This document shows, one piece after another, positions 3,783 to 30,393 of a stretch of DNA of 49,602 bases (position 1 is its first letter; each line of letters begins with the position of its first letter). This DNA comes from Candidatus Levybacteria bacterium CG2_30_37_29 (GTDB taxonomy: Bacteria; Patescibacteriota; Microgenomatia; Levybacterales; GWA1-39-11). The DNA lies in the NCBI GenBank assembly GCA_001873215.1, contig MNYS01000006.1, positions 122,839 to 172,440 of the forward strand. Direction: 5' to 3'. Both the position numbers and the translations under genes were made by a program. The notes under the pieces were generated by a model. The model made no database searches, was not told the DNA's origin, and saw only the letters and a list, made by a program, of their open reading frames with translations.

Positions 3783-3997
3783 CCTCCGCCTTTGGCGGAG
3801 AACCCTGCCTCGCTTCGCGAGGTAGGAATTTTTCCGATTAATTTCGGAGTTCTTTCCCTGTTTCTTAGAAACAGGATTTTAAATTTAGCGGAGTTGTCCG
3901 CCTCTTCGGCGAATTTAACTTCGTTAAATTTTTTTGAGAATTTGATCCTGGTTCAGGATGAACGCTAGCGGCGTGCTTTAGGTATGCAAGTCGAACG

Positions 3998-4313
3998 GCT
4001 CACTCTTTTTGGTTAGTATTTGATACGATAGTTGTATGTACTACGTATATGTTTTAAAAAGCCAAAAATACAAAACTATTAAAATCTATATTGGATTTAC
4101 TTCAGATTTGAAAAGACGAGTTGAGCAGCATAATAGTTTAGAAACAAAATCAACAAGGTTTGGGATTCCCTGGAAGCTTGTTTATTATGAAGCGTTTTTA
4201 AACAAAATAGATGCTGTACAACGCGAATTACAATTAAAAACAGGAAGTGGTTCAATTGGCTTTTTAAAACGTAGAATTAAAAAGTCTTTGGATACTAGTT
4301 GAAAAGAGTGAGC
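3998..4313 (+). mobile_element. Intervening sequence in 16S helix 6 (V1): long stem enclosing an ORF
   Basis: GCTCACTCTTTTTGGTTAGTATTTGA (3998-4023) pairs with TTGGATACTAGTTGAAAAGAGTGAGC (4288-4313) using G-U pairs. Confidence 0.9.
4036..4302 (+). CDS. Small GIY-YIG nuclease family protein inside the 16S gene
   Basis: YYVYVLKS...IYIGFTSDLKRRVEQHN...PWKLVYYEAF...RELQLK. Confidence 0.92.
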   Translation: MYYVYVLKSQKYKTIKIYIGFTSDLKRRVEQHNSLETKSTRFGIPWKLVYYEAFLNKIDAVQRELQLKTGSGSIGFLKRRIKKSLDTS

Positions 4314-5002
4314 AGTGGCAGACGGGTGAGTAACGCGTAAGAATCTACCTTTCAGTGGGGCACAACAGTCCGAAAGGATTGCTAATTCCCCATAATATCT
4401 CCGGATTAAAGGACTTAACTGTCCGCTGAAAGAGGAGCTTGCGCCCTATCAGCTTGTTGGTGAGGTAAAGGCTCACCAAGGCTATGACGGGTAGCTGGAC
4501 TGAGAGGTCGGCCAGCCACAGGGGCACTGAGACACGGGCTCCACACCTACGGGTGGCAGCAACCAGGAATATTGGGCAATGGACGGAAGTCTGACCCAGC
4601 GACGCCGCGTGGAGGATGAAGGTTTTCGGATCGTAAACTCCTTTTGCCAAGCCTTTCACAGCTTGGAGAATAAGCATCTACTAACTACGTGCCAGAAGTC
4701 TCGGTAATACGTAGGATGCAAGCGTTATCCGGATTTATTGGGCGTAAAGAGTGTGTAGGCGGTTTTTTAAGTCGCGATTTAAAGCCTGTGGCTTAACCAC
4801 AGTGTTGGTCGCGATACTGAAAAACTAGAGGGATGTTTGGGGTACAGGAACAGTTGGTGTAGCGGTGAAATGCGTTGATATCAACTGGAACACCGAAGGC
4901 GAAGGCATGTACCTGTAACTCTCCTGACGCTGAGACACGAAAGCTAGGGTAGCGAAACAGATTAGAGACCTGTGTAGTCCTAGCCGTAAACTATGGATGC
5001 TA

Positions 5003-5157
5003 GATACCCCGGAACCAAGTGCATAAACTTGGAATTTTCAATTTTAAATTTTTAATTTACAATAAATGTTTCAATGTTTGAAAACTTCAAATTCACTGAA
5101 AATTGTAAATTGAGAATTGGAAATTTCCAAAAGCTGTGCTTTTGGTTTTGGGGTGTC
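5003..5157 (+). other. Expanded 16S helix 26 (V5) with non-coding AT-rich hairpin insertion
   Basis: GATACCCC/GGGGTGTC basal stem encloses ~140 nt with nested inverted repeats (TTGGAA/TTCCAA; AATTTACAAT/ATTGTAAATT). Confidence 0.85.
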
Positions 5158-5179
5158 GTAAGCTAACGCGTTAAGCATC

Positions 5180-5239
<60 letters not shown>

Positions 5240-5363
5240 CCAGTGGAGCGTGTGGTTCAATTTGAGACGAAACAAAAAACCTCACCAAGGTTTGACATGC
5301 TATCGTTTTATACTTTATGAAAGTTTAGTAGATCTATAGAAATATAGATGATAGCACAGGTGT

Positions 5364-5398
<35 letters not shown>

Positions 5399-5695
5399 CC
5401 CTTAAGTGGGGAAACGAGTGCAACCCCTATCCTGTGTTACATATCACAGGAGACTGCCCCGACTTTGTCGGGGAGGAAGGCGGGGCGGACGTCAAGTCAG
5501 CATGACCCTTATACCTTGGGCTACACACACACTACAATGGCGAAAAACAATGGGTTGCAAGCTCGCAAGAGCAAGCTAATCCCTCAAATTTCGCCTCAGT
5601 TCAGATTGGGGTCTGAAACCCGACCCCATGAAGTCGGAATTGGTAGTAATCGCGGATCAGCGTGCCGCGGTGAATACGTTCTCGGGTCTTGTACA

Positions 5696-6550
5696 AATTA
5701 AATGCGCCTGGCAGTTTAATAAGTCTCGCTGATAGTTTTCAGTCGGGATCCCGCACGAATATGAAATTCGTCGGGGCAAGATGGTGGAAATCCATCTTAA
5801 TAGTTGAAGAACAGTCCCGATGGGTAACCAATCGGGATGAAGGGTTCGATGTATCGAAAAGCAGCCTAAAATAAAAAAAGCATTTCGACCTTTAAGTGTA
5901 CTAAGGGGAAGAAATATACAAAAAGCTTTTTAGGATGTTTGAAACTGTTTATTAAATGACCCAGGGAGATCCTATGTGCATCAGAACTATAATAGGCCAT
6001 AGGAAGTCAGCTGATTCCATAGTACCTTCAGATTATGTATAATTTTAATGTGGAGGGAAGGGATGAACTCTAAATTAAACCCTTATTATTTAGTAGGTTT
6101 AGTTGATGGCGAAGGTTGCTTTAGCGTAACCTTTAATAATCACAAAAGCAACCGCTTAATAGAAGTGAGATTGATTTTTGAGATTGAGCTAAGAGAGGAT
6201 GATAAAGAAATTTTAGAGAGAGTAAAAGAAACTTTTGAATGTGGGAATTTATACAATCTTCAATATGAGAGATACAAAAAATGGAGACCACATTATAAAT
6301 ACAAGGTTTCAAACTTGAGTGATATTACTAAAAAAGTAATATCTTTCTTTAAAAAATATCCTCTTCAGGCAAAGAAGAAAAAGAGTTTTGAGTTGTTTGC
6401 TCAAGTAGCAAAACTTATTACTCAGAAACGCCACTTAACCCGCGAAGGGGTAGAAGAAATTAGATTACTAAAAGAGGATTTAGCAAGAGACTCGCTGGAT
6501 GCGGGAAACCCGCACGTCCAGTGGGGAGCGGAATAGTTCTTAACCGCGAT
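5696..6550 (+). mobile_element. Group II intron in 16S after A1396 (E. coli numbering), encoding a LAGLIDADG endonuclease
   Basis: Removal restores CTTGTACA|CACCGCCCGTCA; domain V CGCTGGATGCGGGAAACCCGCACGTCCAGTG (6493-6523); ends in AT; EBS1 TGTAC (5897-5901) in a stem-loop is complementary to exon end GTACA. Confidence 0.9.
6048..6536 (+). CDS. Single-motif LAGLIDADG homing endonuclease (start may be 6063)
   Basis: YLVGLVDGEGCFSV motif; F..YPLQ.KK..F..F and HLT.EG..I C-terminal pattern. Confidence 0.93.
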   Translation: MWREGMNSKLNPYYLVGLVDGEGCFSVTFNNHKSNRLIEVRLIFEIELREDDKEILERVKETFECGNLYNLQYERYKKWRPHYKYKVSNLSDITKKVISFFKKYPLQAKKKKSFELFAQVAKLITQKRHLTREGVEEIRLLKEDLARDSLDAGNPHVQWGAE

Positions 6551-7952: not shown

Positions 7953-10900
7953 TTAAAGATGAAAGCTTATATCCCTTAACTTATTAAAGTCAAAAATATC
8001 AATTATATTATCTTGTTTGCAATCTGAGTCTTTACTAGTTTTTGTTGTTCCCAAGAATTCATCTTTCCACCAATCAAAGTCAAGATTGTCGACTTTTCCT
8101 GACGATTCACCCTTGGCAGGGTCACAGGTGGGGATTAATGTTGGTGTTGCGACAGAAGGGGTAGCTGTAGGTGTTGCGATGGGACCGGTTGTGGGTGTAG
8201 CGGTAGGTACAGGAGTGTTTGTTGGGAATGAAGTCGGGGTAGGAGTTGGAGTGGCTGTGGGGTTTATAGATGAAAAATTGCGCCCAAAATACCAAACAGA
8301 TTTACCAGAAGTAAAAGGACTTCTTGTTATATGAACCGTTTCAAACCAATTTTTTCCAGGTGCAGGTTGTGTTGTTAGCCATGGTGTAAAGCGAATTTCA
8401 GCTATAATTTCATCTTGGTCACCAAGCGGGGCTTCAACGGATTGGTACTGTGCGACTTCGCTATCTCCCCAGAACGTTACTTTGTTATCAAGTGGATGTT
8501 CAAGACCAATAAATCTTCCTAAAGTTAGGTATCCATCAGGATTGGGTTTTGGATAGGTAAGAGCATCGTATGTCATATTGTTTATTTTAATATATCTGAC
8601 CAAGTCAACAAGTCCGTAATAATTTCCTAGAGCTAACGCCTCAACCGGACTGGAATCATCGTTAAGGACGACCTGAAATTTAACTTTTTGTTCGCCGTTG
8701 TTAATTGTCATCAATAGATAAAAATGTGCTCCGTTTGGAAAACGAGAAAATTGATATTTAGCAACGGTTTGCGTAGAAGTTTGAGAAACAATGCTTTGGA
8801 TTATGGTTGCTCCATCAATTTCGGCATTTCCCCATACTCCTCCAACTCGGGCAATTGGGACTATATTATTATATTGTTGCCAGCTTCCGCTTGAAGTCTT
8901 GTAGAAAAGATCAATGATTCCGGTAATAGATGGAGAAGGTATAATGCGGATATATTCATTTTCATAATATGGTGGAGGTGTGGGTGTAGGACTTGCGACA
9001 TTTACTCCAAAAAGCTTCTTTGCGAGATTAAAATTTTCTTCTCCATCCTCAGTTGTTGGAGCAAAGGCATATCCCTCTGTGAACCCGTTCCAAATATCAA
9101 GAGTAATTCCTGCAGTTTCATATTTTTTGGCAAGATTTTCGACCGAACTTCTCCATGCAGAATTATCTCCATAAACAGTGCCTGGTGGACGAACTAGATG
9201 ATCATCATAACCGGGTAGGACATTTGCCATTAAAGGAATGTTTGAAGATTTCCACCTTTCAAGGATTTCTTCCGCTTTAGTTAATCTTTCATTCTCGGTA
9301 TTACCGTCGGAAGTAATATTAAAAGGATTTATTGCAAGAAGCGATTGGGTATTTTGCAATGCATTTACATCGGGACCTTCATATGACCCGTTTGCGGGAA
9401 GCGGGGTAGGGTCGATAATAAAACCGATTTTCTGTCCTGTTTCAGACTCAATTTTGTTTGCTACTGTATCAAATGCTTGGGCAAATTCTTGTGTATTTAC
9501 AGAACCGGCATGGATTGTTTCGATTAGCCAAATTACTTTCCTCTCCTGTCCATTTTTATCATATATTTTTAACCAATTTAAGTATGTTCCGTAAGTTGAG
9601 AGCAGCGATTTAATTCTTGCTTCCAGTTTTGATGTATCTTGCGGAAAGTCTTTCCAGAACTCAAAACTTTGCATTGGATTGTCTGTATTTGTAACTACTT
9701 CAATGAGAGGTGCAACCATGAGTTGTCTTGCAGCAGCTTTTTCAAAGGTTTTTTTGTTAGCGTCGATTGTGCTTTGGGTCGGAGCATACTGCAAATTTTC
9801 ATTGTTTGGCCCCCACCATGAAAGTTTTATTGTATTTGCGCCTGCGTTTTTTATCTGGTCAAAAGTTTGGTTAAGATACGATTCTTCTGTCGTGTAAGGA
9901 GGATAATATTGGAGTAGAGGATGTCTGGTATAAAATTGTTTAACATTGTTATTTGGTAATCCGCCAAAAAAGAAAACGCCTTTAACTTTTTGCCCTGAAA
10001 ATTCTGTGTTTGCAATTCTCCCCCAGTTATTTGTCGGTGATGGAGTAGGAGCAGCCTCACATCTATTTGTTGCTGGATTACAAAAAGTACAATTATTTTG
10101 AGCTACATTGCAATCAGTCGGGCAACTCGCTAAAGTTTCGCCAGCATCACAAATTCCATTGCCGCAGTAAGATGCAAATAACAAGGTATTCATAACAGTT
10201 GAATATGATGCTTTAGGAGTTCCATCCTTTTTCATAATGCCAAACGTATTTTCACAATTGTATAGAGGATCAGCAAAAGCAGGGTTATCTCTATATTCAA
10301 AAATGAGCACTGAATCCGCGCCACCTTGCCTTGCTCGTTCAATGTATTGCGGTAGTAATCTTTTCTGATCTTCCTCAGTCCATGTAGAGCTTCCAGTGCA
10401 TAAACCTGTCTCAGTAACTATTACAGGTTTGCCATATGTGGCTTTTAGGTCTGCAGTATTCGCAGTTATAGCTTGTATTTCTGCTGAATCATTGTCAGGG
10501 TAAATATCAACAGAAATAACATCTAGATTAGAACCGATGGAATTAAAGTACAATTTCCAGCGGTCACGAAGAGCGGAATTGTAAGGCCAGCCTCCGCTAG
10601 TTGTTGTGATTTGAGCATTCGGATCTATGCTTCGAAGAGTAGTTCTTGCCTGGCCTAATACTGCATTTAGCTGGGAAAGATACGCATCACTTAGGGGAGA
10701 TTTGCTGACATCATTGCTGAATTTATCAAATGCATGCAAATCAGATTCGCCTAATACTAGCCAAAGTCTCAATTTAGCTGTAAATCGAATGCCAAGCTCG
10801 CGATAATATGCGTCAGTTATTGTAAGATATTGAGATTGCGTATATTTGGTTTCATGCGAGCCAGACGCGTCAGAATAAAGTTTTGCCCACTGCGGAACGT

Positions 10901-11387
10901 TAGTTACAAGTTCAACCTGGAATCCTTTGCCGCGAGCATAATCGATTGCCTGGCTATATTGATCAAGACGACTAGGATTGCAGTTTATTGGTGAAGCGAC
11001 TGAACAATCGATGGTTGCAGATGACGGGTCTGTTCTTGGGAAAGCCTCCCAGTCCCAGATGGGGAACCGTATTAGAATCGGTTTTAATCCGGCTGCAGCT
11101 TTTATGGCGTCGATATCCTGCTTAAAAACCTCATAAGTGAGAGGATTAGGATCATTGATAAAAGAAGTATCGAAATTAATGTGAGTGTTGAAACCAGCTG
11201 ATGCCAGTGGAGGCAAAGCACAATCCGCCTGCTTATTGCATAGTGCATTGCATGCATTAAATTCTTGTGCTGCTCTTTGCCTGATGTCTTGTGATTTTCG
11301 ATTAAGTAACAATGTAACCGGTATTGAGATGATAAGTAAGACAGTAAGCAGTGTGCCAATTACCTTCTTTTTGGATAATAAATTCAT
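7953..11387 (-). CDS. Large surface protein: TM + QDIRQRA, clan GH-A-like barrel, GH99-like domain, unknown domain, PT linker, dockerin-like C-terminus
   Basis: LGESD acid/base-like and VIVTETG nucleophile-like motifs, FG....DGTPKASY; LSWWG, PGYDD..RP, WNGFTEG; terminal DNLDFDWW...DCKQDNIIDIFDF. Confidence 0.75.
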   Translation of the reverse strand: MNLLSKKKVIGTLLTVLLIISIPVTLLLNRKSQDIRQRAAQEFNACNALCNKQADCALPPLASAGFNTHINFDTSFINDPNPLTYEVFKQDIDAIKAAAGLKPILIRFPIWDWEAFPRTDPSSATIDCSVASPINCNPSRLDQYSQAIDYARGKGFQVELVTNVPQWAKLYSDASGSHETKYTQSQYLTITDAYYRELGIRFTAKLRLWLVLGESDLHAFDKFSNDVSKSPLSDAYLSQLNAVLGQARTTLRSIDPNAQITTTSGGWPYNSALRDRWKLYFNSIGSNLDVISVDIYPDNDSAEIQAITANTADLKATYGKPVIVTETGLCTGSSTWTEEDQKRLLPQYIERARQGGADSVLIFEYRDNPAFADPLYNCENTFGIMKKDGTPKASYSTVMNTLLFASYCGNGICDAGETLASCPTDCNVAQNNCTFCNPATNRCEAAPTPSPTNNWGRIANTEFSGQKVKGVFFFGGLPNNNVKQFYTRHPLLQYYPPYTTEESYLNQTFDQIKNAGANTIKLSWWGPNNENLQYAPTQSTIDANKKTFEKAAARQLMVAPLIEVVTNTDNPMQSFEFWKDFPQDTSKLEARIKSLLSTYGTYLNWLKIYDKNGQERKVIWLIETIHAGSVNTQEFAQAFDTVANKIESETGQKIGFIIDPTPLPANGSYEGPDVNALQNTQSLLAINPFNITSDGNTENERLTKAEEILERWKSSNIPLMANVLPGYDDHLVRPPGTVYGDNSAWRSSVENLAKKYETAGITLDIWNGFTEGYAFAPTTEDGEENFNLAKKLFGVNVASPTPTPPPYYENEYIRIIPSPSITGIIDLFYKTSSGSWQQYNNIVPIARVGGVWGNAEIDGATIIQSIVSQTSTQTVAKYQFSRFPNGAHFYLLMTINNGEQKVKFQVVLNDDSSPVEALALGNYYGLVDLVRYIKINNMTYDALTYPKPNPDGYLTLGRFIGLEHPLDNKVTFWGDSEVAQYQSVEAPLGDQDEIIAEIRFTPWLTTQPAPGKNWFETVHITRSPFTSGKSVWYFGRNFSSINPTATPTPTPTSFPTNTPVPTATPTTGPIATPTATPSVATPTLIPTCDPAKGESSGKVDNLDFDWWKDEFLGTTKTSKDSDCKQDNIIDIFDFNKLRDISFHL

Positions 11388-11441
11388 ATACAAAGATAAT
11401 TAATAATACCACTTTTAAACATATGCAGGCTTAGATCAAAA

Positions 11442-13212: not shown

Positions 13213-14496
13213 TTAGTCGCCTTTTCTTCTCGAAAATCCTGTATAGAGAATACTCAAGTCAATTGAATCAACAAGCCCATCGTCATTAATATCAGCTCTT
13301 GATTTTATGGCAGCTGTACAGTTGTCGCGGGAATTTGTACAATCAAGCATCGCGTTGTAGTCTGCCAAATTAAGCTCGTTATCGTGGGCAGAATCAATAT
13401 CTCCCGTTATAAGTTCTACTGTTGAGGTTGGTGTATAAACGGCCTTAGCAAGATTTACGATTACAGGAAGTACTTTTCGCAAAGAATTTGTAGTTCGAAT
13501 TTTTACAAGATAAGGCTTTGCTGGTATTGGACCAAGATTTACCGACGCTTCGTATTTGCCGTTAATGTAAAACGCGACTGTTTCTTTGGCTAAAATTGCG
13601 TCTCCGTCAATTACCTCAATTTCAGTATTCCGTCCAAAAGCTTGCGGATTATTATTTTGTCCCCCACTTGTATTTGTACCAATTCCGGGAAGTGTGTATT
13701 CAATCTTAATTCCGACATCATTCTGGCCAAGCACTGGAGTTGGAGTAGGAGTTTTTGGCGTCGTCGGTGTGACGCTGGGACCTGATGTTGGTGTTGGAGT
13801 CGCGGTCGGTGTTGGAGTTAGTGTTGGTGTTGGTGTTGGGCAATTGCCGTTGAAGTCTCCAGGTGTACATGTTGGTGTTGGATTACCAGTTACCGTAGGT
13901 GTTAGGGTTGGTGTTGGGGTGGTGTTTGTGTCAACGACAGTAATATTTGCAACGCCGGGGAGACCCGTGACCGGTATATTTCCTGAAATTCCTGAAGCTG
14001 CAATTTTCACAGCCACTTGATGGCTAAAGGCGATAGCCATACTTCCTGTATCCAGAGCCTTAAATTTAAAAATTACGACATTAACATTTTCACCGGAGAT
14101 AGGGGTGGAAGTTTGATTGATAAGAATTATTCTTTGCAATCTGGTAGTACTTTGTTGAGAATTTGCTCCATCAATTAATGTATAACTTTCGTGGGCCTTT
14201 GTGCCAATAAGTTCAAACTTTGTTGAATTATATTCCAGTACACCATCTATTGCAGAAATATCATTTCCTTTAGTATCCATGGTAAGCGTAAGTTCAAAAT
14301 CTTCCCCCTTATTTACTGTTTTTGAACTTGGTGAAAAAGATAAAGTTACCGGAGCTCCGGTTGATGCTCTTTGGCGGATATCTTGTTGTTTTAGAACTTG
14401 GGAAACAATAATGGGAATTGATAATACTAAAATTCCCAAAGCCGCGAGAGTAATTGGCCTTTTATGTGTTTTGTAAAATTCAATTATTTTTTCCAT
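13213..14496 (-). CDS. Surface protein: TM + QQDIRQRA, cohesin, PT linker, beta domain, dockerin
   Basis: LSFSPSS..V.KGEDF...DISAIDGVLEYN; duplicated Ca-binding loops GDID..DNELNLADY and ADINDDGLVDSIDLS. Confidence 0.8.
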   Translation of the reverse strand: MEKIIEFYKTHKRPITLAALGILVLSIPIIVSQVLKQQDIRQRASTGAPVTLSFSPSSKTVNKGEDFELTLTMDTKGNDISAIDGVLEYNSTKFELIGTKAHESYTLIDGANSQQSTTRLQRIILINQTSTPISGENVNVVIFKFKALDTGSMAIAFSHQVAVKIAASGISGNIPVTGLPGVANITVVDTNTTPTPTLTPTVTGNPTPTCTPGDFNGNCPTPTPTLTPTPTATPTPTSGPSVTPTTPKTPTPTPVLGQNDVGIKIEYTLPGIGTNTSGGQNNNPQAFGRNTEIEVIDGDAILAKETVAFYINGKYEASVNLGPIPAKPYLVKIRTTNSLRKVLPVIVNLAKAVYTPTSTVELITGDIDSAHDNELNLADYNAMLDCTNSRDNCTAAIKSRADINDDGLVDSIDLSILYTGFSRRKGD

Positions 14497-15824: not shown

Positions 15825-16487
15825 TTAATCGATAATTAGTTCTTTGGGTAAGATTTTTAAATTATCTTTAAGATCCATAAAATCTTTATAAAGAGGTATT
15901 CTTCTCAAGCGCTTATCGCTTAAAAGTTCAAGAACGAAACTTGGTTTTACCCATACTGCTTTTTTACTACCAATATAATATTGATAGCTGGAATACGGAT
16001 ATTCTACAGGGTCCGACCCTGCAAACAGATGTTGCGGATTTAAGTGAATATATTTAGAAAGATAAAGAAGATAATTGTCGTCTAGCACTAGCGATGCTTT
16101 GTAATTTCCCTGAAATAAAGAACCTACCCTTTCGTATTTTTTGTTAAAGTACATAGTATATGAAGTTGAAGCCGCCCTCATAAACTCCGTAATTGAGTTT
16201 TTATTTTTTTGGTGAACGAGAAGATGAAAATGATTTGGCATAAGACAAAAAGCCAAAAGATCAACTTCTTCATGAAATGTTTTTTTTATTCTAAAATTGA
16301 AATCAACACCGTTTTTTGCCAAAGGGTGGGGTAAGTTAAATAAGGGGGAAAGATAGAATTTTAAAAGACCGAGGAATACAATGTAATCTTGTGTATCGAC
16401 ATAAATAATTCTTTTTTCTACACCTCTGTTGTAAATATGATAATAGCCATTTTCAATATATGTTTTTATTCGATTTTTTGCCGGCAT
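15825..16487 (-). CDS. REP-associated tyrosine transposase (Y1/HUH, IS200-like TnpA)
   Basis: YYHIYNRG, FCLMPNHFHLL (HUH), GSLFQG.YK, YIHLNP, YPYSSY; start reassigned to MPAKNR behind TTGACA-17-TACACT (16526-16498, minus). Confidence 0.92.
   Translation of the reverse strand: MPAKNRIKTYIENGYYHIYNRGVEKRIIYVDTQDYIVFLGLLKFYLSPLFNLPHPLAKNGVDFNFRIKKTFHEEVDLLAFCLMPNHFHLLVHQKNKNSITEFMRAASTSYTMYFNKKYERVGSLFQGNYKASLVLDDNYLLYLSKYIHLNPQHLFAGSDPVEYPYSSYQYYIGSKKAVWVKPSFVLELLSDKRLRRIPLYKDFMDLKDNLKILPKELIID
16007..16021. repeat. REP-like palindrome family A inside the transposase ORF
   Basis: CAGGGTCCGACCCTG, translated within AGSDPV. Confidence 0.88.
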
Positions 16488-16526
16488 ACCTAGAAAGAGT
16501 GTAGTACTTCTTTTTTCTCTTGTCAA

Positions 16527-16559
16527 CAGGGTCCGACCCTGGCAGGGTCGGACCCTGCA
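16527..16559. repeat. Two adjacent, oppositely oriented REP-like palindromes, family A
   Basis: CAGGGTCCGACCCTG followed by GCAGGGTCGGACCCTGCA. Confidence 0.9.
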
Positions 16560-16605
16560 AGCAAGCATTTACAAATGTGAAAGTTTTGGGTATCATCTTT
16601 GTTGC

Positions 16606-22329: not shown

Positions 22330-22533
22330 ATGGAAAAAATAATTGAGAGGTTTGGATGGTTAAAAACCTCAATAATTCTTATAATAATAGGTGTTATCTT
22401 TTTGGTTTATTCAATATATTCTACAATGCAGATAGCAAGAATTTATACTGCAAAAAAACCACCGCAGTCCCCGGCGCAAAAAACACCCGAAATTAAGCAA
22501 AATATTAATATTTTTCCGAGTATCACAAAGTAA
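22330..22533 (+). CDS. Small single-TM protein
   Basis: 67 aa; TTGACG...AATACT promoter-like sequence upstream. Confidence 0.6.
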   Translation: MEKIIERFGWLKTSIILIIIGVIFLVYSIYSTMQIARIYTAKKPPQSPAQKTPEIKQNINIFPSITK

Positions 22534-22542
22534 ATTAAGGAC

Positions 22543-22752
22543 TTAAATTATTGGAGTTGGTGTAGGAGTGGGCGTTGCGCCTCCGGGTAAAAGAATAGGT
22601 ACAGGAGTGATAGTTGGTGTTGCATCAGAGCCTACCCGTTTTAGTTCTGTAATTTTAAAAAGAGATTTGCCGGAAACAAAAAAAACGGCAAAAACAAGGA
22701 CAACAAGAAGTAAATAAATTTCCGTATCTCCGCGGGTACTATTTTTTTTCAT
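22543..22752 (-). CDS. Small pilin-like protein with PT tail
   Basis: MKKNSTRG|DTEIYLLLVVLVFAVFFVSG leader. Confidence 0.6.
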   Translation of the reverse strand: MKKNSTRGDTEIYLLLVVLVFAVFFVSGKSLFKITELKRVGSDATPTITPVPILLPGGATPTPTPTPII

Positions 22753-22758
22753 AATCTT

Positions 22759-24186
22759 TTACATGAAGCAGGAGAAAGGATGATTTTTGTCTTTTTTAAA
22801 TATTCCTCCCCATTCAACGACCGTGAATCCACTTCTTTTAATTGGCGTAATTACCGGCTGGGTAATATCAATTTTATTTTCCAGCGCTTCAAAATAAAGA
22901 GTAACGCGGATAACAGTATTTGGGGTGGGGGAGATAGAAAGTGGAGCAATTGAATTTAGGTTTGATTGTGAGACAATACCTATAAAATAATAAGGAGAAT
23001 CGGGCAAAGCTTTTATCCAGTAATTTTTAAATTCATCAGCTTCTTTTTTATTCAATGAAAGCTTGGGAAGAATTTCCGTCAAAAAGCTGGCAAGATCATT
23101 TTTTGCAACAACAAATCCTTTATCCGGTTTTTCTATATTACTATCAGGAATTTCCGCCTCGTAGTAAAGATAGTCATAACTCTTGTTTTGGTATGAAAGA
23201 ATTCCATTTGGCTGGGCTTGTACGTCCCAGCCGCTTTGTGGATATTGTGGGTCCGTATACAACATTTTTCCAACCGGCGCAACTTTTACATTTACATTTG
23301 TTGTGGTTGTGGGATACAGGTAGATTGCGGGCTTGCAAAGAGGCGAAAGCCATGGAATCGAAATGCCCTCCTGTTCTACTGTAAAAGTCCGTAATTGGAG
23401 GTTCGTTTTCCCGGGATAATCCGTAGGTAGTATTATTTTCTGGCCCGACCCTTTTGCAGGAGTATCGGGCCCAAAATTTTTATCGCAGTTTTTAATAAAA
23501 TCCGGCATTCCGGAAGAATCATATTCTGATATTTTATAATAAGCATCATAAACTGTTTTATCTGTTCCATAGCAAGATATATCAGCCGCAGGATTGGGCC
23601 ACGTGCATGCAGCGGCAGTACAATTTTGCTTGCAGATAAAAATAAGGTTGTCGTTTGGAATTGCGTCGCAGTATTTTTGTATATCAGCATTTGTATAGTT
23701 TCGTTTCATAAACATATATGGATCAGGCGGATTTTTTTTAAAGTACAAATCTTTTGGATGACCGATAGGATCTGGTCTGTTACAAAAGCTTTTTACAGCA
23801 GGATTATCAACGGCATGTGTATCTGAAGAGTTAAGGATAATTGGTTTTCCGTCAGGTGTTGTTATTCCGCTGTCTTTTAAGTGAAGATTCCCTTCGGTAA
23901 GAACACTGTTTGTTCTAAGAAGTCCGTATCTTTCTCCATTGAACGTTATTACCTGGTTTTTGCTCTCGTCTCTTTGTGGTTGGCAGGCGTCTCCGTCTCC
24001 GGTATCACAGCATGTTGTTGAAGTGCTAAATCCAATCGGAGAATTTCCACGATTTTGACCGAAAAGTCCGCCTCCAATAATAAATCCGAAAATAACCGCG
24101 AAAATCAGGATAATAATTTCAACCCCGCCTCTCGTGGTTAAGCGCTTCTTTTGAATTTTCTTTCTTTTTTTTATTTTTGGCATCAC
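22759..24186 (-). CDS. Pilin-like-leader protein with Cys-rich region and conserved KPxIYLYP...GFTVVEWGG domain of unknown function
   Basis: TTRG|GVEIIILIF leader; KPAIYLYP, GW.V.A.PNG, YLYYEA, YW...L, RSGFTVVEWGG. Confidence 0.75.
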   Translation of the reverse strand: MMPKIKKRKKIQKKRLTTRGGVEIIILIFAVIFGFIIGGGLFGQNRGNSPIGFSTSTTCCDTGDGDACQPQRDESKNQVITFNGERYGLLRTNSVLTEGNLHLKDSGITTPDGKPIILNSSDTHAVDNPAVKSFCNRPDPIGHPKDLYFKKNPPDPYMFMKRNYTNADIQKYCDAIPNDNLIFICKQNCTAAACTWPNPAADISCYGTDKTVYDAYYKISEYDSSGMPDFIKNCDKNFGPDTPAKGSGQKIILPTDYPGKTNLQLRTFTVEQEGISIPWLSPLCKPAIYLYPTTTTNVNVKVAPVGKMLYTDPQYPQSGWDVQAQPNGILSYQNKSYDYLYYEAEIPDSNIEKPDKGFVVAKNDLASFLTEILPKLSLNKKEADEFKNYWIKALPDSPYYFIGIVSQSNLNSIAPLSISPTPNTVIRVTLYFEALENKIDITQPVITPIKRSGFTVVEWGGIFKKDKNHPFSCFM

Positions 24187-24216
24187 TAATTATAGTATGG
24201 CTAACTAATCGTTGTG

Positions 24217-24603
24217 TCAACTGCCATAATCAGGTGTTGGTGTGGGTGGAGGAGGGGTAGGAGTATGGGTTGGTCCACTTCCAGGCGGAGGAGTCGGAGT
24301 TGGAGTCGGTGTAGGGCCGGGAGGATTTGTGGGGGTAGGTGTTGTCGGCGGCAAAGTAGGTGGGATAGGAGTCGGAGTGGGGGAAATAAATTTCAGGGTT
24401 CCGATTTGGAGATTTTTTTTAGGACCAATAATCCCTGAGTCAACAGGAATACCGGCCGGTTCAGTTGAATTAGGGGTAATTTTTCGGGTATAAACGCCGC
24501 CGACTAAAAATATGCTTCCTACAACAACTGCCGCAACAATTAAATAAATAATCCCCTGACCTTGTGTTTTTAAAAAAAATTGTTGCCTCTTCTTTCTTAG
24601 CAT
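24217..24603 (-). CDS. Pilin-like-leader protein with Pro/Thr-rich tail
   Basis: KTQG|QGIIYLIVAAVVVGSIFLVGG; KKNLQIGTLKF motif. Confidence 0.65.
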   Translation of the reverse strand: MLRKKRQQFFLKTQGQGIIYLIVAAVVVGSIFLVGGVYTRKITPNSTEPAGIPVDSGIIGPKKNLQIGTLKFISPTPTPIPPTLPPTTPTPTNPPGPTPTPTPTPPPGSGPTHTPTPPPPTPTPDYGS

Positions 24604-24612
24604 GAGAAATTA

Positions 24613-25584
24613 TCAGGTGCAAATTTTCTGGGAAATACTTTTGAAAATAGCTTTAAAATCGGTAGCGTCGTTTGCTAAGAAATAGTCGGTAGCGGGATCT
24701 GTGGTAATAGTTTTCATCATATTTTCGATTTTGCTTCTGAAATGTTCATCTGCAGCACTAATAATAACTATTGAGAATATTCTGACATTTTTACCGCCAC
24801 CGCTTACTAAGCTTTTTATTTCCGCTGATATATTGCTACCGGCTGTTGGGTCTTCATTTGGATCAAAACACCTGCATTTTCCGGTGGTCGGACTTGCGGT
24901 GCATGACGGTCCTCCTATGCTCCCCGGACAAATTTTGTTATTTTCTCCTGTTTCCGGTATTCCGTCAGTAAAGAAAATAAGATTGAAATTGTAGGTATTA
25001 AATTTAGTATTTGCCACAGCTGCCCTAAGGTCATCAAGCTCAGCGCTAAAAGCTGTTCTTGTCATCGTACCGAAATTGGCTGAAAGTGAATTTACTGTTT
25101 GGTTATATGCGCTTCTATTTTTTGAATAAAAATCAATTGGGACAAGACGGGACGTAGGAGGCAATCCAGAATCATTCGTGCTGCTGAAACGCCTTATGCC
25201 TACAGCTGTTTTGTCGTTAAAATTGGCGGCAAAATTTTGCATAGCTTGTTTTAGATTTGCAAGCTTTACTCCTCCATCAAAAGCCATGGATCCGGATGTG
25301 TCTATAAGAAAATCGATTGCCGCTTGATCGCTGCATTTTTTAAATTTGAATGTTTCAATTTTAAGGGATTTGCCATTTTGATTTGTCGGGACAGAGGTTA
25401 AGTCTACTTCCCCGACATCATCCATATTTACTTTTGAGTCGTCAAGTTCCGGAAAAATGCCCCCTGCCAAAATAATCGCGCCGAGAACAACGACACCCAA
25501 GATAAGCGTAATTGCGATATCCCCACGCCTCAAAAAACTAAAAAAAGATTTTTTCCTTTGACGTACAACCCGTTTTTTCCTCAT
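24613..25584 (-). CDS. von Willebrand factor A domain protein with pilin-like leader
   Basis: MIDAS DTSGSM, FGT.T, IFFTDG; RRG|DIAITLILGVVVLG leader. Confidence 0.85.
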   Translation of the reverse strand: MRKKRVVRQRKKSFFSFLRRGDIAITLILGVVVLGAIILAGGIFPELDDSKVNMDDVGEVDLTSVPTNQNGKSLKIETFKFKKCSDQAAIDFLIDTSGSMAFDGGVKLANLKQAMQNFAANFNDKTAVGIRRFSSTNDSGLPPTSRLVPIDFYSKNRSAYNQTVNSLSANFGTMTRTAFSAELDDLRAAVANTKFNTYNFNLIFFTDGIPETGENNKICPGSIGGPSCTASPTTGKCRCFDPNEDPTAGSNISAEIKSLVSGGGKNVRIFSIVIISAADEHFRSKIENMMKTITTDPATDYFLANDATDFKAIFKSISQKICT

Positions 25585-25638
25585 ATACTCTAAGTGTAAT
25601 ACATATTTTTTTCGCGTGTCAAGGAAAAAAATAGCTTA

Positions 25639-25653
25639 CAGGGTCCGACCCTG
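25639..25653. repeat. Dispersed REP-like palindrome family A
   Basis: CAGGGTCCGACCCTG, intergenic, 9 kb from the transposase. Confidence 0.88.
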
Positions 25654-25700
25654 CTATTCCAAATGTAAATTATGAGTCAATGCACGGTTTCGTATTATGT

Positions 25701-26351
25701 TTATCGTGGAATAGAGGTGCTGTCTTGGAGAAAGGTGATTTCAAGGTCTGTTTTCTCAAATTTTACTTGTTTACCCAAATTAATAAGGGCGGTTAATGAA
25801 GTTATCTGGATTCCAAACTTTTCTTTATTTGATAAATTTACAACATCATATTTTATTGTCGCCAATTTCCCTTTTCCTGTTTTTGGCGTATCAGTATTAG
25901 TATTATTTAAGGCAAGAGTGATGAAAGCTTTTCCTTTTTCCTGATTTACGATTGTCTGGTCAACCCTGAATTCTGAAAATGGAGAAGTTAGATCATCTGT
26001 TTTATTTACGCTTACATTTGAAATCATACTTGGGTCAAATGACAATTCCATTTGTACTATCGCAACACCTTTTCCTTGTGTGTCAAGAACAATATCAGAC
26101 GAGATCCCATTCTGTTTTTTCTGAAGTAGCTTTATTGACGGAGGAGAGAAGTAGAGAAATGCAGGGTTTTTTCTAATCACAGTTTCCGAAGTTTTATTTG
26201 GTTTCGTAAAATCATTTTTATCCGTTTTTAATTGTGAAAGCACAACAACAATTACGGTTAGCAAAACCAAAATTCCCACACAAACAAGAGCAATAATTAT
26301 ATTTTTTTTACTCAAAATCTGTTTTTCTTCTATTTCTATATCATTTTCCAT
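25701..26351 (-). CDS. Membrane-anchored cohesin-like protein
   Basis: TM; LYFSPPS...DIVLDT.GKGV..VQMELSFDP...G.GKLATI. Confidence 0.7.
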   Translation of the reverse strand: MENDIEIEEKQILSKKNIIIALVCVGILVLLTVIVVVLSQLKTDKNDFTKPNKTSETVIRKNPAFLYFSPPSIKLLQKKQNGISSDIVLDTQGKGVAIVQMELSFDPSMISNVSVNKTDDLTSPFSEFRVDQTIVNQEKGKAFITLALNNTNTDTPKTGKGKLATIKYDVVNLSNKEKFGIQITSLTALINLGKQVKFEKTDLEITFLQDSTSIPR

Positions 26352-26354
26352 AAT

Positions 26355-28607
26355 TTAGTTACACTTCCAATCATGTGCAAAGTCAGTACATGTTCCGTTT
26401 GGACACCATCTTGAAGATGCTCCGTCACAGCAGCCGCTACCCGAACCTGGTGGTACTTGAATTACACATGCAAGATTATTATTACAATTACCCATCTTAC
26501 ATGGACCTCCAAGAACAGATGAATATGGTTCCGTAGTCGGTGTTGGGGTAGGAGTTGGTGTTTTGGTCGGCGTGGCAGTAGCACTAGGAACTGTTGTTGG
26601 GGTAGGAGTTGGTGTTCCCGTTGTGTGCGGTGCGGGGGTTAATGTTGTATTTGGTCTTAGACAACAGGCTTTATATTTATTACCCGTAAACGGATTTGTT
26701 GTATCTTTGCATGCTTGGTCAGCAGCGTTATTCTTTGCATTTTCTGCAGGAGGATAAGGCTTGCCTCTTTGTGGTGAAAATTCCGTGCAGAGTTTTTCTT
26801 CACAAGAACTTGAAGAAGGTGGGCAGTATCTGTAATCCGGCGTTGGTGTCGGGGTTCCCGGACCAGGAGTAGGTCCAAGGCACCAAGGAGACTTCCAGCA
26901 GGGATTTTGATCCTTATCATTATCATCCCAGCCGTATTCTCTAGGATCTGTTCCGCTAACGCATTGGTATACGTCAGTGTAATGCTTACCACAGTATTTT
27001 CCGGCGTAGGCATCTGCCATATCGTAAGGCTGGCCGTCGCATTTTGGAATTAGCGGATGGGGGTTATCTTCAGGTTTGGGAAGTCCCCCAGCGTTTTTAC
27101 ATACCTGTGAATCTTCAAGAATTATTGTTAGATCTTTGCAAACCCAACATACGCTGTTAGCCCCATTCTTTGCTTTACAATCTGCGCTACCTTTATCATC
27201 TGTATATCTATGCCATGTTTTTGGGTAAGTGGGGCATGCATCGTTTTCGTTGTGGGCTGTTAGAGGTTCACAAGAGCCAGAACAAGGCTTAGGAGTTGGA
27301 GTTGGGGTAGGGGATGACGTCGGCGTTGCCGTCGCACCACCAGGCGTCGTACTCACAGGTGTTGGTGTTGGTGTTGGAGATGAGGAGATTGCGCAAACAA
27401 CTTTATATTTGCACGTACCAGTGTTGTCAGAGTAGTTATTAGGATCAAAATCTGAAGAGAATGATAATTTGTCAGCAGAAATTATAATAGGCTGGAGTCC
27501 TCCTCCTGGATCATTGACCTGAGGACATTCTAGAGGACATCTACTTGAATTTGTATTGTCGGCGCTCCAAGCGCACCATCCTCCGGAGTCTTTAGTTGCT
27601 GAGCTAATAGGGCCATTTGTTGTAGCATTAATAGGTTTCTTCATGTCGAAACTTACAAAAGCCCCAACATCTCCATTACATGTTATGGGTATATTATTTC
27701 CAGATGTCGGGGTTGGCGTCGGTGTTCCGGTCGTATTAGGCGTGGGGGTTGGTGTTTTGCTCGGGGCTGGAGTTGTGTTGGAATCCGTAACATCAACGCT
27801 TGCATCTTTTTCTATGATTTGACCATCAGCATCAACAGTGACTTTTGTATGAATAGTAATCTTTGGTTTATCTGAATCTTCGACTTTATATGAAGGAGTG
27901 CAGTCACCTCCGCCTACACCGTTATTAGATTCGTTAAAAAACGGTGTTGTTTGTGGTGGCGCTGGAGCTGTTTGTGTCATTTTTATATGAAACGGAGTAT
28001 TTGCAGGAGTTAGATTGTAGCAGATCATTATATCATCACCGACCTTATAAGATGCTTCTTTATCAAAGGATACAACTAAGGTGTAATTTCCTGCGGCGCT
28101 TTGCGTTACTTTCGCTCCCTCCCCCAAGTTGTGGCGTTGGAACCAACCTTGGTTTACCTCAAGTGCGCGTCGGTAGGGAGCCTTTGGTGTAATGGGCGTT
28201 AAATCATTTGGTATTCCATCTTTTAGCTCGAGGATTTTTCCCGAAGCGTCAAGGAAGGCAATTGTCAGCGGAATTTTGGTATTTTTCATGTGGAACGCGA
28301 AGCTTACATCATCGGGAAAGACAAAAAGCATTCCGTGATCTTCAGGCATGCTGGTACGGTTCATAAGCCCATTCTCCCATTCAGCCTGTGTTGTAGCTAG
28401 CTCAACATAGATTTTTTCCGAAACGCCCGCATCAGTAATAGTTAGCGTACTACTACCGGCTGCTTGTTGGCGGGTGTCCTGCTGTTGACCCACCAGTTTT
28501 AGTGTTATCGGTATTGCCAGAAGTGTTATTGCGGCAATAATAATTGGAATCGGCGCAAACCCTCGGTTGGAGTTAAATTTGTTAAAATATTTAAACACAC
28601 CACTCAT
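26355..28607 (-). CDS. Modular surface protein: leader + QQDTRQQA, DUF192 domain, several Cys-rich modules with PT linkers
   Basis: VELATT..E...GLM.R...GMLFVF...FHMKNT.IPL.IAFLD...ALEVN.G (DUF192). Confidence 0.8.
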   Translation of the reverse strand: MSGVFKYFNKFNSNRGFAPIPIIIAAITLLAIPITLKLVGQQQDTRQQAAGSSTLTITDAGVSEKIYVELATTQAEWENGLMNRTSMPEDHGMLFVFPDDVSFAFHMKNTKIPLTIAFLDASGKILELKDGIPNDLTPITPKAPYRRALEVNQGWFQRHNLGEGAKVTQSAAGNYTLVVSFDKEASYKVGDDIMICYNLTPANTPFHIKMTQTAPAPPQTTPFFNESNNGVGGGDCTPSYKVEDSDKPKITIHTKVTVDADGQIIEKDASVDVTDSNTTPAPSKTPTPTPNTTGTPTPTPTSGNNIPITCNGDVGAFVSFDMKKPINATTNGPISSATKDSGGWCAWSADNTNSSRCPLECPQVNDPGGGLQPIIISADKLSFSSDFDPNNYSDNTGTCKYKVVCAISSSPTPTPTPVSTTPGGATATPTSSPTPTPTPKPCSGSCEPLTAHNENDACPTYPKTWHRYTDDKGSADCKAKNGANSVCWVCKDLTIILEDSQVCKNAGGLPKPEDNPHPLIPKCDGQPYDMADAYAGKYCGKHYTDVYQCVSGTDPREYGWDDNDKDQNPCWKSPWCLGPTPGPGTPTPTPDYRYCPPSSSSCEEKLCTEFSPQRGKPYPPAENAKNNAADQACKDTTNPFTGNKYKACCLRPNTTLTPAPHTTGTPTPTPTTVPSATATPTKTPTPTPTPTTEPYSSVLGGPCKMGNCNNNLACVIQVPPGSGSGCCDGASSRWCPNGTCTDFAHDWKCN

Positions 28608-28733
28608 ATACGATAAGTTCGCAATTAAGTAAATAATATATCTTAAGACAGGCCAGTGTCAATTAGGGGTTTGAACCAGAGCTCCGAGGATGAAAATCAA
28701 CTATTAACTAATCCCTATTCACTATTGACTAAT

Positions 28734-29204
28734 TTACGGGCAGGGGTGTGATGTATTATCGGTTTTAGCTTTTTCGTCTCCGTCCGGTCTTTGTCCTCCG
28801 CTGTTTGCTCCCTGAAAAAGCCTCACTCTCCAAGGTTTTGTATTAAATTCAGAACTCTTTGGTAGGGTCATAGCCGCCCAAACAGAAGGGTTGTGTGTAA
28901 ATTCATCAGATGACATTGTTTGAAATCCGCTTCCTTTATTAATCTCGAGAGTAATGTATCCCGTATCCGGTCCTTTTGCAGTAATTTCTATTTGTTCGCC
29001 AAGAGGTGCGCAGCCTTTTGTAACATAACTAATGTCCCATGTGGCGGTTCCACCGCCCGGAGTTGGAGTAGGGGTCGAAGAACTGCCGCCTGGTGTCGAA
29101 GATGAGGGAAGGACGTAATCGTTTCCTTGATAAGTTGCGCCGCCAATCAAGAAAGCCCCCAGAATAATAATTATAAGAATAACAATCTCACCGCCGACCT
29201 TCAT
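28734..29204 (-). CDS. Pilin-like-leader secreted protein
   Basis: MKVG|GEIVILIIIILGAFLIGG; S/T/P linker; small beta domain with 2 Cys. Confidence 0.65.
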   Translation of the reverse strand: MKVGGEIVILIIIILGAFLIGGATYQGNDYVLPSSSTPGGSSSTPTPTPGGGTATWDISYVTKGCAPLGEQIEITAKGPDTGYITLEINKGSGFQTMSSDEFTHNPSVWAAMTLPKSSEFNTKPWRVRLFQGANSGGQRPDGDEKAKTDNTSHPCP

Positions 29205-29327: not shown

Positions 29328-29972
29328 ATGGCTTCAAGAAAAGTACCTTTAGCAACCGGAGAACACTATCATGTCTTTAACCGCGGCGTTGCCAAAATGC
29401 GTATTTTCAATAATGTTTATGATTGCAACAGATTTTTAAGATGTGTTCTCTATTACCAAATCGATGGATCTAAGCCAAGATTCTCTGTATTTACACCCGA
29501 AACTCATGAGTTAAATTCGGCCAAAAAGATCGTCGATATAATTTCTTATTGCTTTATGCCGAATCATTTTCATTTCTTGCTGAAACAAGTAAGAGACGGT
29601 GGGATTTCTGAATTTATTAGCAAAATAAGTAATAGCTACACCAAATATTTCAATATCAAAAATGATCGAATTGGCCCACTTTTACAAGGGGATTTCAAAG
29701 CCGTACACATTGAATCAAACGAGCAATTGCTCCATGTTGGACGGTATATTCATCTTAATCCCGTGATTGGTTTTGTGACAAAAGATTTAGAATTATATAA
29801 GTGGTCTTCGTATCCAGAATATATTGATCTTATTAAAGATAGCATCTGTGAAAAAGAAATCATTCTTAGCCAGTTCGAAACCAAAAACGACTATAAACAA
29901 TTTGTTTTAAACCACGTTGACTATGCACAGAAACACGACCAGGTAAAACATCTTTTGTTAGACTTTGAATAA
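29328..29972 (+). CDS. Second REP-associated tyrosine transposase (Y1/HUH)
   Basis: HYHVFNRG, YCFMPNHFHFLL, GPLLQG.FK, RYIHLNP, YKWSSY. Confidence 0.92.
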   Translation: MASRKVPLATGEHYHVFNRGVAKMRIFNNVYDCNRFLRCVLYYQIDGSKPRFSVFTPETHELNSAKKIVDIISYCFMPNHFHFLLKQVRDGGISEFISKISNSYTKYFNIKNDRIGPLLQGDFKAVHIESNEQLLHVGRYIHLNPVIGFVTKDLELYKWSSYPEYIDLIKDSICEKEIILSQFETKNDYKQFVLNHVDYAQKHDQVKHLLLDFE

Positions 29973-30084: not shown

Positions 30085-30393
30085 TTAGTGGATTTCAAGC
30101 GCAGCAATTCTTTTCTCGTGGTTGTCAGTTGTAACTGTTAATCTTCTCATCTGAAGTGTTCCGGCGGCATTCTCCGCATCAAGATCATCAAGACGTTTCA
30201 TAATTTTATCTGCAGATGTAAGAATCTTGTCGTTTATTTCATTAAACCTTTCATCAACACGTTCAATAATTGTTTCGCTCATGTCAAAAATGTTATCCTT
30301 AGTAGCAAATTTCTTTTCAAGTTTTTTTTCGAATTCGTCAAACTCTTTCTTTAGTTCATTATTGGATACTGGTTTGTCGGTTTGTTTTTTCAT
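30085..30393 (-). CDS. Small coiled-coil hypothetical protein
   Basis: FATKD...HEKRIAALE heptad pattern. Confidence 0.7.
   Translation of the reverse strand: MKKQTDKPVSNNELKKEFDEFEKKLEKKFATKDNIFDMSETIIERVDERFNEINDKILTSADKIMKRLDDLDAENAAGTLQMRRLTVTTDNHEKRIAALEIH

Follow-up and report, generated by a model that had tools for sequence, protein, structure and literature searches.

Can a bacterium mark proteins that are not pilins with a signal for the prepilin peptidase PilD? This question is raised by a cassette of seven genes (g1-g7) at positions 22543-29204 of a 49,602-nucleotide stretch of DNA, here called the window (contig MNYS01000006.1, positions 122,839 to 172,440; G000:C2:122839-172440), from Candidatus Levybacteria bacterium CG2_30_37_29, whose genome measures 1.0 Mb and is 99.6% complete. 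A life in attachment to other cells is assumed for the ultrasmall bacteria of this radiation, and beyond type IV pili little is known of how they attach. An earlier interpretation, made from the DNA letters alone and called the sequence-only reading here, had seen in the cassette a pilin-like filament/adhesin system with atypical class III leaders. All seven genes are arranged in tandem on the minus strand, with intergenic gaps of 3-126 bases. In the following list the arrow marks the position after the boundary Gly.

22543-22752, minus: g1, 69 amino acids; start TRG↓DTE; shared module, then a short Pro/Thr tail
22759-24186, minus: g2, 475 amino acids; start TRG↓GVE; shared module, Cys-rich N-domain (CCDxGxG...C), LQL strand, C-domain at about 285-470
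24217-24603, minus: g3, 128 amino acids; shared module (TQG↓QGI...VGG), LQIGTLKF strand, then only a Pro/Thr-rich tail
24613-25584, minus: g4, 323 amino acids; start RRG↓DIA; shared module (G21...G41 G42 x x P45), acidic/Pro-rich linker, VWA domain; a conserved LQL-type strand and Cys84 precede the VWA domain, DxSxS comprises D95, S97 and S99, and Cys322 is C-terminal
25450-25584, minus: N-terminal module of g4 (residues 1-45) with variable basic leader, boundary Gly, 19-residue helix with Gly at +14, and GG-x-x-P
25701-26351, minus: g5, 216 amino acids; plain Lys-rich N-terminal anchor without boundary Gly, cohesin-like domain
26355-28607, minus: g6, 750 amino acids; start NRG↓FAP; DUF192 at residues 66-168, then Cys-rich modules and Pro/Thr linkers
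28734-29204, minus: g7, 156 amino acids; start KVG↓GEI; leader of 3-4 residues, Gly, helix, GG, 35-residue Pro/Ser/Thr stalk, beta sandwich

Our analysis indicates that g1, g2, g3, g4 and g7 are very probably extracytoplasmic, stalked proteins built on one lineage-specific N-terminal module, with Cys-stapled heads where a head is present. Six of the seven genes encode a basic leader, a Gly and a hydrophobic helix at the N-terminus, and the six N-termini quoted in the sequence-only reading are present exactly as written and co-oriented on the minus strand. Its payloads could also be confirmed, namely the Pro/Thr tails (g1, g3), the KPAIYLYP domain (g2), VWA with its metal ion-dependent adhesion site (MIDAS; g4) and DUF192 (g6). 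Its sixth member, g6, has to be taken out of the series, as it reaches only E 27 with the profile of the module described below and belongs to a second motif class instead. The module of the other five consists of a variable basic leader, Gly, a hydrophobic helix of 19-20 residues with a Gly-rich face, Gly-Gly(-x-x-Pro) and a Pro/Thr stalk, and it carries VWA/MIDAS, an Ig-like sandwich, an unmatched domain or, in g1 and g3, the Pro/Thr tail alone. Pfam scans assigned g4 to VWA (PF00092, E 3e-9) and g6 to DUF192 (PF02643, E 3.1e-27, 95 bits against a cut-off of 27). The match of g5 to cohesin (PF00963, E 4.9e-5, 24.0 bits) fell just under the cut-off of 24.1, and g1, g2, g3 and g7 had no Pfam match.

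The specificity of this arrangement was evaluated against the whole genome. Among 1,069 non-overlapping open reading frames (ORFs), 263 have an N-terminal hydrophobic segment; the pattern [KR]-x0-1-G-x0-3-helix fits 13 of them, five of which are g1, g2, g4, g6 and g7. Outside the cluster the same boundary pattern occurs in 8 of about 256 anchored proteins, a background of 3%. The module profile was built from 61 distinct N-termini of related genomes and a protein database, none of them from this genome, chosen by the rule of Gly, 17-22 mostly hydrophobic residues and GlyGly. Run against all 9,896 six-frame ORFs of the genome, it ranked the proteins of the cassette as follows.

Rank 1: g4, E 6.9e-10
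Rank 2: g1, E 1.5e-8
Rank 3: g3, E 0.0026
Rank 4: g7, E 0.27
Rank 6: g2, E 1.7

Apart from g4, g1, g3 and g7, no ORF of the genome scored below E 1, and no canonical pilin was found among the 40 best rows. Leave-one-out searches with the five window N-termini were weak: only g1 was recovered (E 6.3e-4), g3, g2 and g4 ranked 3, 12 and 113, and g7 was not listed. A module model of 42 rows (A4) matched g1 with E 2.1e-9 and g3 with E 5.8e-5. In BLASTP, g3 matched the N-terminal ~90 residues of three paralogues with E 3e-6 to 4.5e-4, and by its sequence it resembles the "KPAIYLYP" paralogues cut back to their N-terminal part, without the head. Judged by these searches, one specific module is common to g1, g2, g3, g4 and g7 and is found only in this cluster within the 1.0-Mb genome. 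A limited literature search yielded no description of it.

Conservation of the module and of the heads

Conservation of single positions was read from a MAFFT alignment of 53 distinct VWA relatives that are 25-80% identical to g4.

Boundary Gly (G21 of g4): 51/53
K/R just before the boundary Gly: 36/53
Gly at +14: 37/53
G41: 36/53
G42: 53/53
P45: 48/53
L-Q-L strand ahead of the VWA domain: 51-52/53
Cys84: 53/53
MIDAS D95, S97 and S99: 53, 47 and 53 of 53

Column entropy amounts to 1.77 bits in the module, 1.95 bits in the VWA domain, 2.56 bits in the leader and 2.77 bits in the linker. Because a hydrophobic alphabet by itself lowers entropy, it is the invariant Gly and Pro positions that carry the argument. 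The leader is variable in sequence and its length ranges from 2 to more than 60 residues among relatives; residues often found at +1 are Q, F, S, G, D and E. In the smaller alignment A3 (22 sequences) G21, G42, C84, D95, S97, S99, T173, D207 and C322 are invariant. T173 and D207 lie downstream of DxSxS and probably belong to the metal site of g4. A VWA Pfam match was obtained for 22/22 g4 relatives.

The boundary Gly is likewise kept in the other families. It is present in 21/21 VWA relatives from the database (20 by script, the 21st by eye) and, by script, in 13/13 g7 relatives, 9 of which have K/R at -2. G22, C65, W125 and C155 are invariant, as is the last helix Gly, in alignment A2 of the 13 g7 relatives, in which the aligner placed the window's own boundary Gly one column over. 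For the g2 relatives 11/16 were counted by script and 13/16 by eye, and for paralogues with the g2 C-domain 11/14 and 12/14, respectively; the cohesin-like, g5-like neighbours score 0/5. The script missed rows in which the uncharged run starts before the Gly or in which Lys stands at +5, and we therefore relied on alignment column counts. Loss of this Gly in orthologues had been named in the sequence-only reading as the mark of plain membrane anchors; what we found is its retention in 51/53 VWA, 13/13 g7 and 13/16 g2 relatives. A further shared element is an L-Q-L-K-T-(F/L/I)-K-F strand 8-10 residues before the first Cys, which occurs in the VWA proteins, in g2 and its paralogues and in g3, and which is of low confidence in the g2 model.

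Structure prediction shows different heads behind this common N-terminus. The AlphaFold2 model of g7 (mean predicted local distance difference test score, pLDDT, 74) has a helix at 7-20, a region without secondary structure and mostly of low pLDDT at 21-56, and a seven-strand sandwich at 57-150. In the VIA search this sandwich resembled macroglobulin (MG), FN3 and Ig-like domains with Z 9.2-7.5, which is a common fold, and no pilin was among 50 rows. In the g2 model a helix (22-37) is followed by a Cys-rich region of low confidence and by a C-domain that is modelled confidently at about 285-470 (pLDDT ~85-97). Foldseek against the PDB gave nothing for g2 at E<=0.001. VIA gave a best Z of 4.1 (residues 73-224, lantibiotic immunity proteins) and a best Z of 3.4 for the C-domain, values to be read with the lower single-domain sensitivity of a 475-residue model. 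Matches in the protein atlas were unnamed clusters from several phyla with template modelling (TM) scores of 0.89-0.90, and the "KPAIYLYP" domain is kept in 13/13 aligned orthologues of g2. Each of the three head families has one invariant Cys where the head begins and a second one 1-4 residues before the C-terminus (C284 and C473 in g2; C65 and C155 in g7). We infer from this pairing a disulfide staple and hence an extracytoplasmic location. A complex prediction for g4 (70-323) with g7 (52-156) scored 0.00, which weighs neither for nor against binding.

Relatives of g2, g4 and g7 occur in 41, 38 and 20 of 61 related genomes, the own genome counted. The A4 model has a match at E<=0.001 in 38/61 relatives; many of these 38 are training rows, and the invariant Gly columns of A4 follow from row selection and are not evidence. 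In the rest of the phylum 3 of 300 sampled genomes match the module, each over part of the model, whose short length limits sensitivity. Among the 24 relatives with at least two module matches, 13 have all of them within 7 kb on one contig and 5 have at least two so placed; the matches of the remaining 6 are on separate contigs of fragmented assemblies. g4 adjoins g7 in at least ten relatives, and in the window g5 and g6 lie between them. In several genomes the cassette is located between a serine hydroxymethyltransferase-like gene and rpsB/tsf-like genes, these neighbours being assigned by eye from their N-termini. Within the order of small-genome bacteria to which the window belongs, genes with this module very probably stay together as a cassette.

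Two relatives encode a further protein next to the g7/g4 pair. These proteins of 467-477 amino acids (L049:3-1403, minus; L053:2-1432, minus) have a Gly-helix-GG start and sub-threshold matches to reprolysin-like zinc metallopeptidases (best E 2.7e-4, 21.7 bits against a cut-off of 27). A protease payload on the same kind of module is possible in them.

The boundary glycine and the prepilin peptidase

The genome encodes a canonical pilus locus on another contig than the cassette. Contig 7 carries the only Peptidase_A24 (PilD) match of the genome, with the PilD gene at 62973-63743 on its minus strand, two T2SSE ATPases and five N_methyl matches. The latter, four of them over the cut-off, have K-G↓F-T-L-I-E starts and served as positive control for the pilin test. 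The locus also holds a pilin with G↓QTLIE, which suggests that this PilD probably accepts Gln at +1, and a 282-amino-acid protein with the start NRG↓QV and no Glu5. The latter is one of the eight outsiders that share the boundary pattern, and it reaches E 18 with the module profile.

We tentatively propose that the module acts as a divergent class III signal of archaeal style, which PilD cuts for a bindosome-like display of adhesins, a reading that we regard as quite possible, if somewhat short of probable. The protein would enter the membrane via Sec, and the single PilD of the genome would cut after the boundary Gly at the cytoplasmic face. An uncharged N-terminal helix would stay on the mature protein and anchor the stalked head on the cell. 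By way of this helix the type IV pilus machinery, whose genes lie elsewhere, could also raise and display the head, in the manner of the archaeal bindosome or of a pilus tip, and the VWA head would bind a ligand on the host cell or on a surface via its metal site. In this way the proteins would act like class III substrates while standing outside the type IV pilin family.

Among the readings considered here, the class III reading alone explains why a Gly stands at the exact boundary of leader and helix after K/R in four payload families, compared with a background of 3%. Conservation of the boundary Gly extends down to 25% overall identity, and the constraint on the helix matches that on the VWA domain (1.77 vs 1.95 bits). 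The Pro/Thr stalk, which begins right behind the helix, suggests retention of the helix. Gly is found at -1 before the hydrophobic tract in g1-g4, g6 and g7. The archaeal-style test of the charge at -2 gives K/R-G for g1, g2, g4 and g6, V-G for g7 and Q-G for g3. Class III sites need G, A or S at -1, the charge at -2 matters in archaea, and Glu5 is near-universal only in bacteria, as laid out in section 8 of PMC4371748. Within the sections concerned, PMC4371748 and PMC13705601 present Glu5 as a bacterial habit and not as a requirement for cleavage, and archaea as using signals of this kind for payloads other than pilins whose genes lie apart from the machinery. According to the relevant passages of PMC8179133, vWA modules occur on a tip pilin, and those of PMC11623550 describe large tip pilins, PilX1 and PilX2, in a cultured relative phylum without predicted PilD signals. 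The Gly mostly follows a basic residue (K/R in 36/53 VWA relatives), and in its layout the module stands nearer to archaeal class III signals than to bacterial ones, as the sequence-only reading had it.

Several observations weigh against cleavage by PilD. PilD is found in 59/61 relatives, the two without a match being 93% and 92% complete, and since the enzyme is near-universal its presence discriminates nothing. Pfam N_methyl matched 0/7 window proteins at E<=1 and 0/22 and 0/13 relatives at E<=10. The core motif of PilFind, [GAS]-x4-[DE] with uncharged +1 to +4 (PMC3244431), is present by eye in 0/7 window proteins, which have no Glu/Asp at +5; by script it was found in 1/16 g2, 1/13 g7 and 0/68 relatives of three other type-A sets. 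The lollipop of pilins, a long helix packed on a sheet, does not appear in the g2 or g7 models, which show a short helix, a disordered stalk and no alpha1C. Pilus genes were seen neither near this cluster nor in ~60 related loci. In three g2 orthologues from a sister family the leader is short, of the MNK type and without the boundary Gly, and the helix-end Gly is kept, so that this protein does not need the boundary Gly. Just ahead of K/R-G the VWA relatives conserve hydrophobic or aromatic residues, an uncommon trait in prepilin leaders. The end of their helix, with A/V/S at -3 in 46/53 and G at -1 in 53/53, also fits signal peptidase I.

NCBIfam returned no pilin model for the window proteins at E<=1, and a regular expression for canonical pilin starts had a single match, chaperone-like by eye, in 1,586 ORFs of the related loci. 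The g2 and g7 models contain no folded pilin module, and only about 40 linker residues separate the g4 helix from the VWA core. g1-g4 and g7 are therefore not type IV pilins: they lack Glu5, the N_methyl profile match and the lollipop fold, three of the four testable features, and resemble class III substrates in layout only. The minor pilins of the sequence-only reading have to be given up in the family sense, given the missing N_methyl match, the lack of Glu/Asp at +5 and the non-pilin heads of two models. From its wider picture of a pilin-like filament/adhesin system, the conserved Gly, the single available PilD and the intact DxSxS of the VWA domain stand; membership in the pilin family does not.

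What else could place a Gly at this boundary? That ordinary anchors have a Gly after basic residues merely by chance is hardly credible. The weak leave-one-out result with five window sequences and the noise of short hydrophobic profiles leave some room for it, but the Gly is kept in 51/53, 13/13 and 21/21 relatives, a profile free of sequences from this genome finds g4, g1 and g3 (E 6.9e-10 to 0.0026) and, below E 1, otherwise only g7, and the module-bearing genes are clustered in relatives. A more serious alternative, doubtful in our view, is a specialised uncleaved signal anchor. The proteins would then be type II membrane proteins whose basic leader stays cytoplasmic and whose Gly residues at the boundary, +14 and +20/+21 form a packing face, by which the helices bind each other or a putative membrane partner and gather the stalked heads at the cell surface. 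It agrees with a helix that is conserved like the VWA domain, with the recurrence of Gly at +14 (37/53) and +20/+21 (36 and 53 of 53), with the Pro/Thr stalk behind the helix, with gene clustering in 18/24 genomes with at least two matches, with the conserved hydrophobic residues just before K/R-G in the VWA family and with the lack of pilin hallmarks and of nearby pilus genes. However, it gives no reason for K/R-Gly at the exact boundary in four payload families, a pattern that is rare elsewhere (8/~256) and found in 0/5 cohesin-like proteins.

An improbable alternative is a Sec signal peptide that signal peptidase I cuts after Gly-Gly, in which case the boundary Gly would be a sorting motif and the heads would be released or held non-covalently. 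Besides the A/V/S at -3 and G at -1 of the VWA relatives, the [AVIS]-x-G at the same place in g7 relatives speaks for it, as do the sister-family g2 orthologues, in which a short, ordinary-looking signal (MNK, hydrophobic stretch, AG/SG) aligns at the helix-end Gly. Yet, at 19-20 residues, the hydrophobic core is longer than expected of a cleaved signal, and cleavage would leave a Pro/Thr-rich tail of 25-40 residues without a tether. Moreover, the proteins end 1-4 residues after an invariant Cys and have no C-terminal anchor, so that a VWA adhesin, once released, would be of no use for attaching the cell. The YSIRK signal family, a precedent for such a sorting motif, was not listed in the Pfam scans, in which the HMMER filters drop most weak matches.

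Second motif, cassette edges and other elements

The N-terminus of g6 is of a second type, helix-IPIT-...-QQQDTRQQA. In this class the helix ends with (S/A)IP(I/L/V)T, followed after about 6 residues by QQ(D/E)xRQ(R/Q/K)A. The pattern Q[DE]xR[QSKT]xA has only 5 occurrences in the 9,896 six-frame ORFs of the genome, all just after an N-terminal helix.

26355-28607 of the window: g6
13213-14496 of the window: protein with Q[DE]xR[QSKT]xA
7953-11393 of the window: protein with Q[DE]xR[QSKT]xA
G000:C3:208-1479: protein with Q[DE]xR[QSKT]xA
G000:C3:122905-124983: protein with Q[DE]xR[QSKT]xA

The second motif is also present in relatives and may be another lineage-specific sorting or cleavage signal; we are aware of no description, although no search aimed at one was made. 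Candidate transcription signals in the cassette are listed below; promoter-like sites numbered 23, compared with 18.4 +/- 4.0 in shuffles.

28633-28662, minus: promoter-like site upstream of g6, 11/12 consensus matches
25593-25622: promoter-like site before g4, consensus match only
24192-24220: promoter-like site before g2, consensus match only
25638-25654: terminator-like hairpin after g5, consensus match only

At the edge of the cassette g7 is adjoined by a protein with an IS200-like Y1 transposase domain (PF01797, E 2.3e-6; 29328-29972, plus). The ORF 15825-16568, which adjoins the other surface-protein cluster of the window, resembles this transposase by eye. The downstream edge is followed on the opposite strand by a 67-amino-acid single-helix membrane protein (22330-22533, plus); similar proteins, either small or of 205 amino acids and starting with MEGIIDKLGW or MEKIIERFGW, adjoin g2 orthologues in relatives. 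A small Lys/Glu-rich, probably coiled-coil protein with KEDL-type repeats lies near the cassette (30085-30393, minus) and recurs beside or inside the cassette of relatives (L030:16679-17044; L031:1492-1797).

Farther away, a 16S rRNA match at 3930-5743 spans 1,814 bases against a model of 1,533 positions and thus contains an insertion of ~280 bases; an 88-amino-acid ORF (4036-4302) lies inside this match. Downstream of the 16S gene (5988-6063, 6048-6536) there are a match to group II intron D1-D4 (35.5 bits against a cut-off of 35) and a 162-amino-acid ORF. By eye both ORFs at the 16S gene resemble homing-endonuclease types.

Comparison with known systems

The module is a compact, conserved N-terminal tag common to an adhesin-like cassette and is specific enough to search for. 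Should PilD cut this tag, the known substrate range of bacterial prepilin peptidases would widen to take in stalked non-pilin payloads without Glu5, and software trained on Glu5 would be overlooking an entire class of surface proteins linked to pili. Should PilD leave the tag uncut, it is still a new module for sorting or assembly that is specific to the lineage.

Bacterial type IV pilins (N_methyl PF07963 / IPR012902) have in common with the module proteins a basic leader ending in Gly before a hydrophobic helix of ~20 residues. Also shared are a Gly near +14, helix breakers near +20 to +24 and a genome with PilD and a pilus locus. The Gly and the helix breakers are comparable to G14/P22 of type IVa pilins. 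In contrast to pilins, the module proteins mostly lack F/M at +1 and have no Glu/Asp at +5, their helix runs into a disordered stalk, and their genes lie outside the pilus locus. A different precedent is the YSIRK-G/S signal peptide of Gram-positive surface proteins, which combines an aromatic/basic motif with a Gly at the start of the hydrophobic core and occurs on many payloads. YSIRK proteins carry C-terminal sortase anchors, whereas the module proteins are without such anchors.

Two bacterial pilus systems are close in payload. PilB of Streptococcus sanguinis, in the parts of PMC8179133 that deal with its domains, has a vWA domain with a metal-site motif behind a Gly-plus-helix signal, and a role in attachment is proposed for it. 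However, the class III signal of PilB is canonical and includes Glu5, and a folded pilin module separates its helix from the vWA domain; g4 has neither of these. Lacking a pilin module, the module proteins are not modular pilins in the sense of PilB. PilX1 and PilX2 of Nanosynbacter lyticus TM7x, as treated in the pertinent portion of PMC11623550, are candidate adhesins of an ultrasmall episymbiont with large accessory domains, and PilD signals are not predicted for them. They are encoded inside pilus loci and were modelled with a pilin-like lollipop, neither of which applies to the module proteins.

The sugar-binding proteins of the Sulfolobales bindosome, in the excerpts of PMC13705601 and PMC4371748 and the abstract of PMC3047682 that concern them, share with the module proteins large non-pilin payloads on a common N-terminus with a charged residue at -2 and a small one at -1. 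There as well Glu5 is not required, the genes lie away from the filament machinery, and one machinery is proposed for many payloads. We speculate, while considering it rather unlikely, that the cassette is a bacterial counterpart of the bindosome, in which PilD would cut class III signals of non-pilin proteins and the pilus would display exchangeable attachment heads, possibly including a metallopeptidase payload. The present case differs in that it concerns a bacterium with a bacterial-type PilD. Finally, the payloads of the bindosome in these sources are substrate-binding proteins encoded beside ABC transporters, whereas those of the cassette are adhesin-like (VWA, Ig-like).

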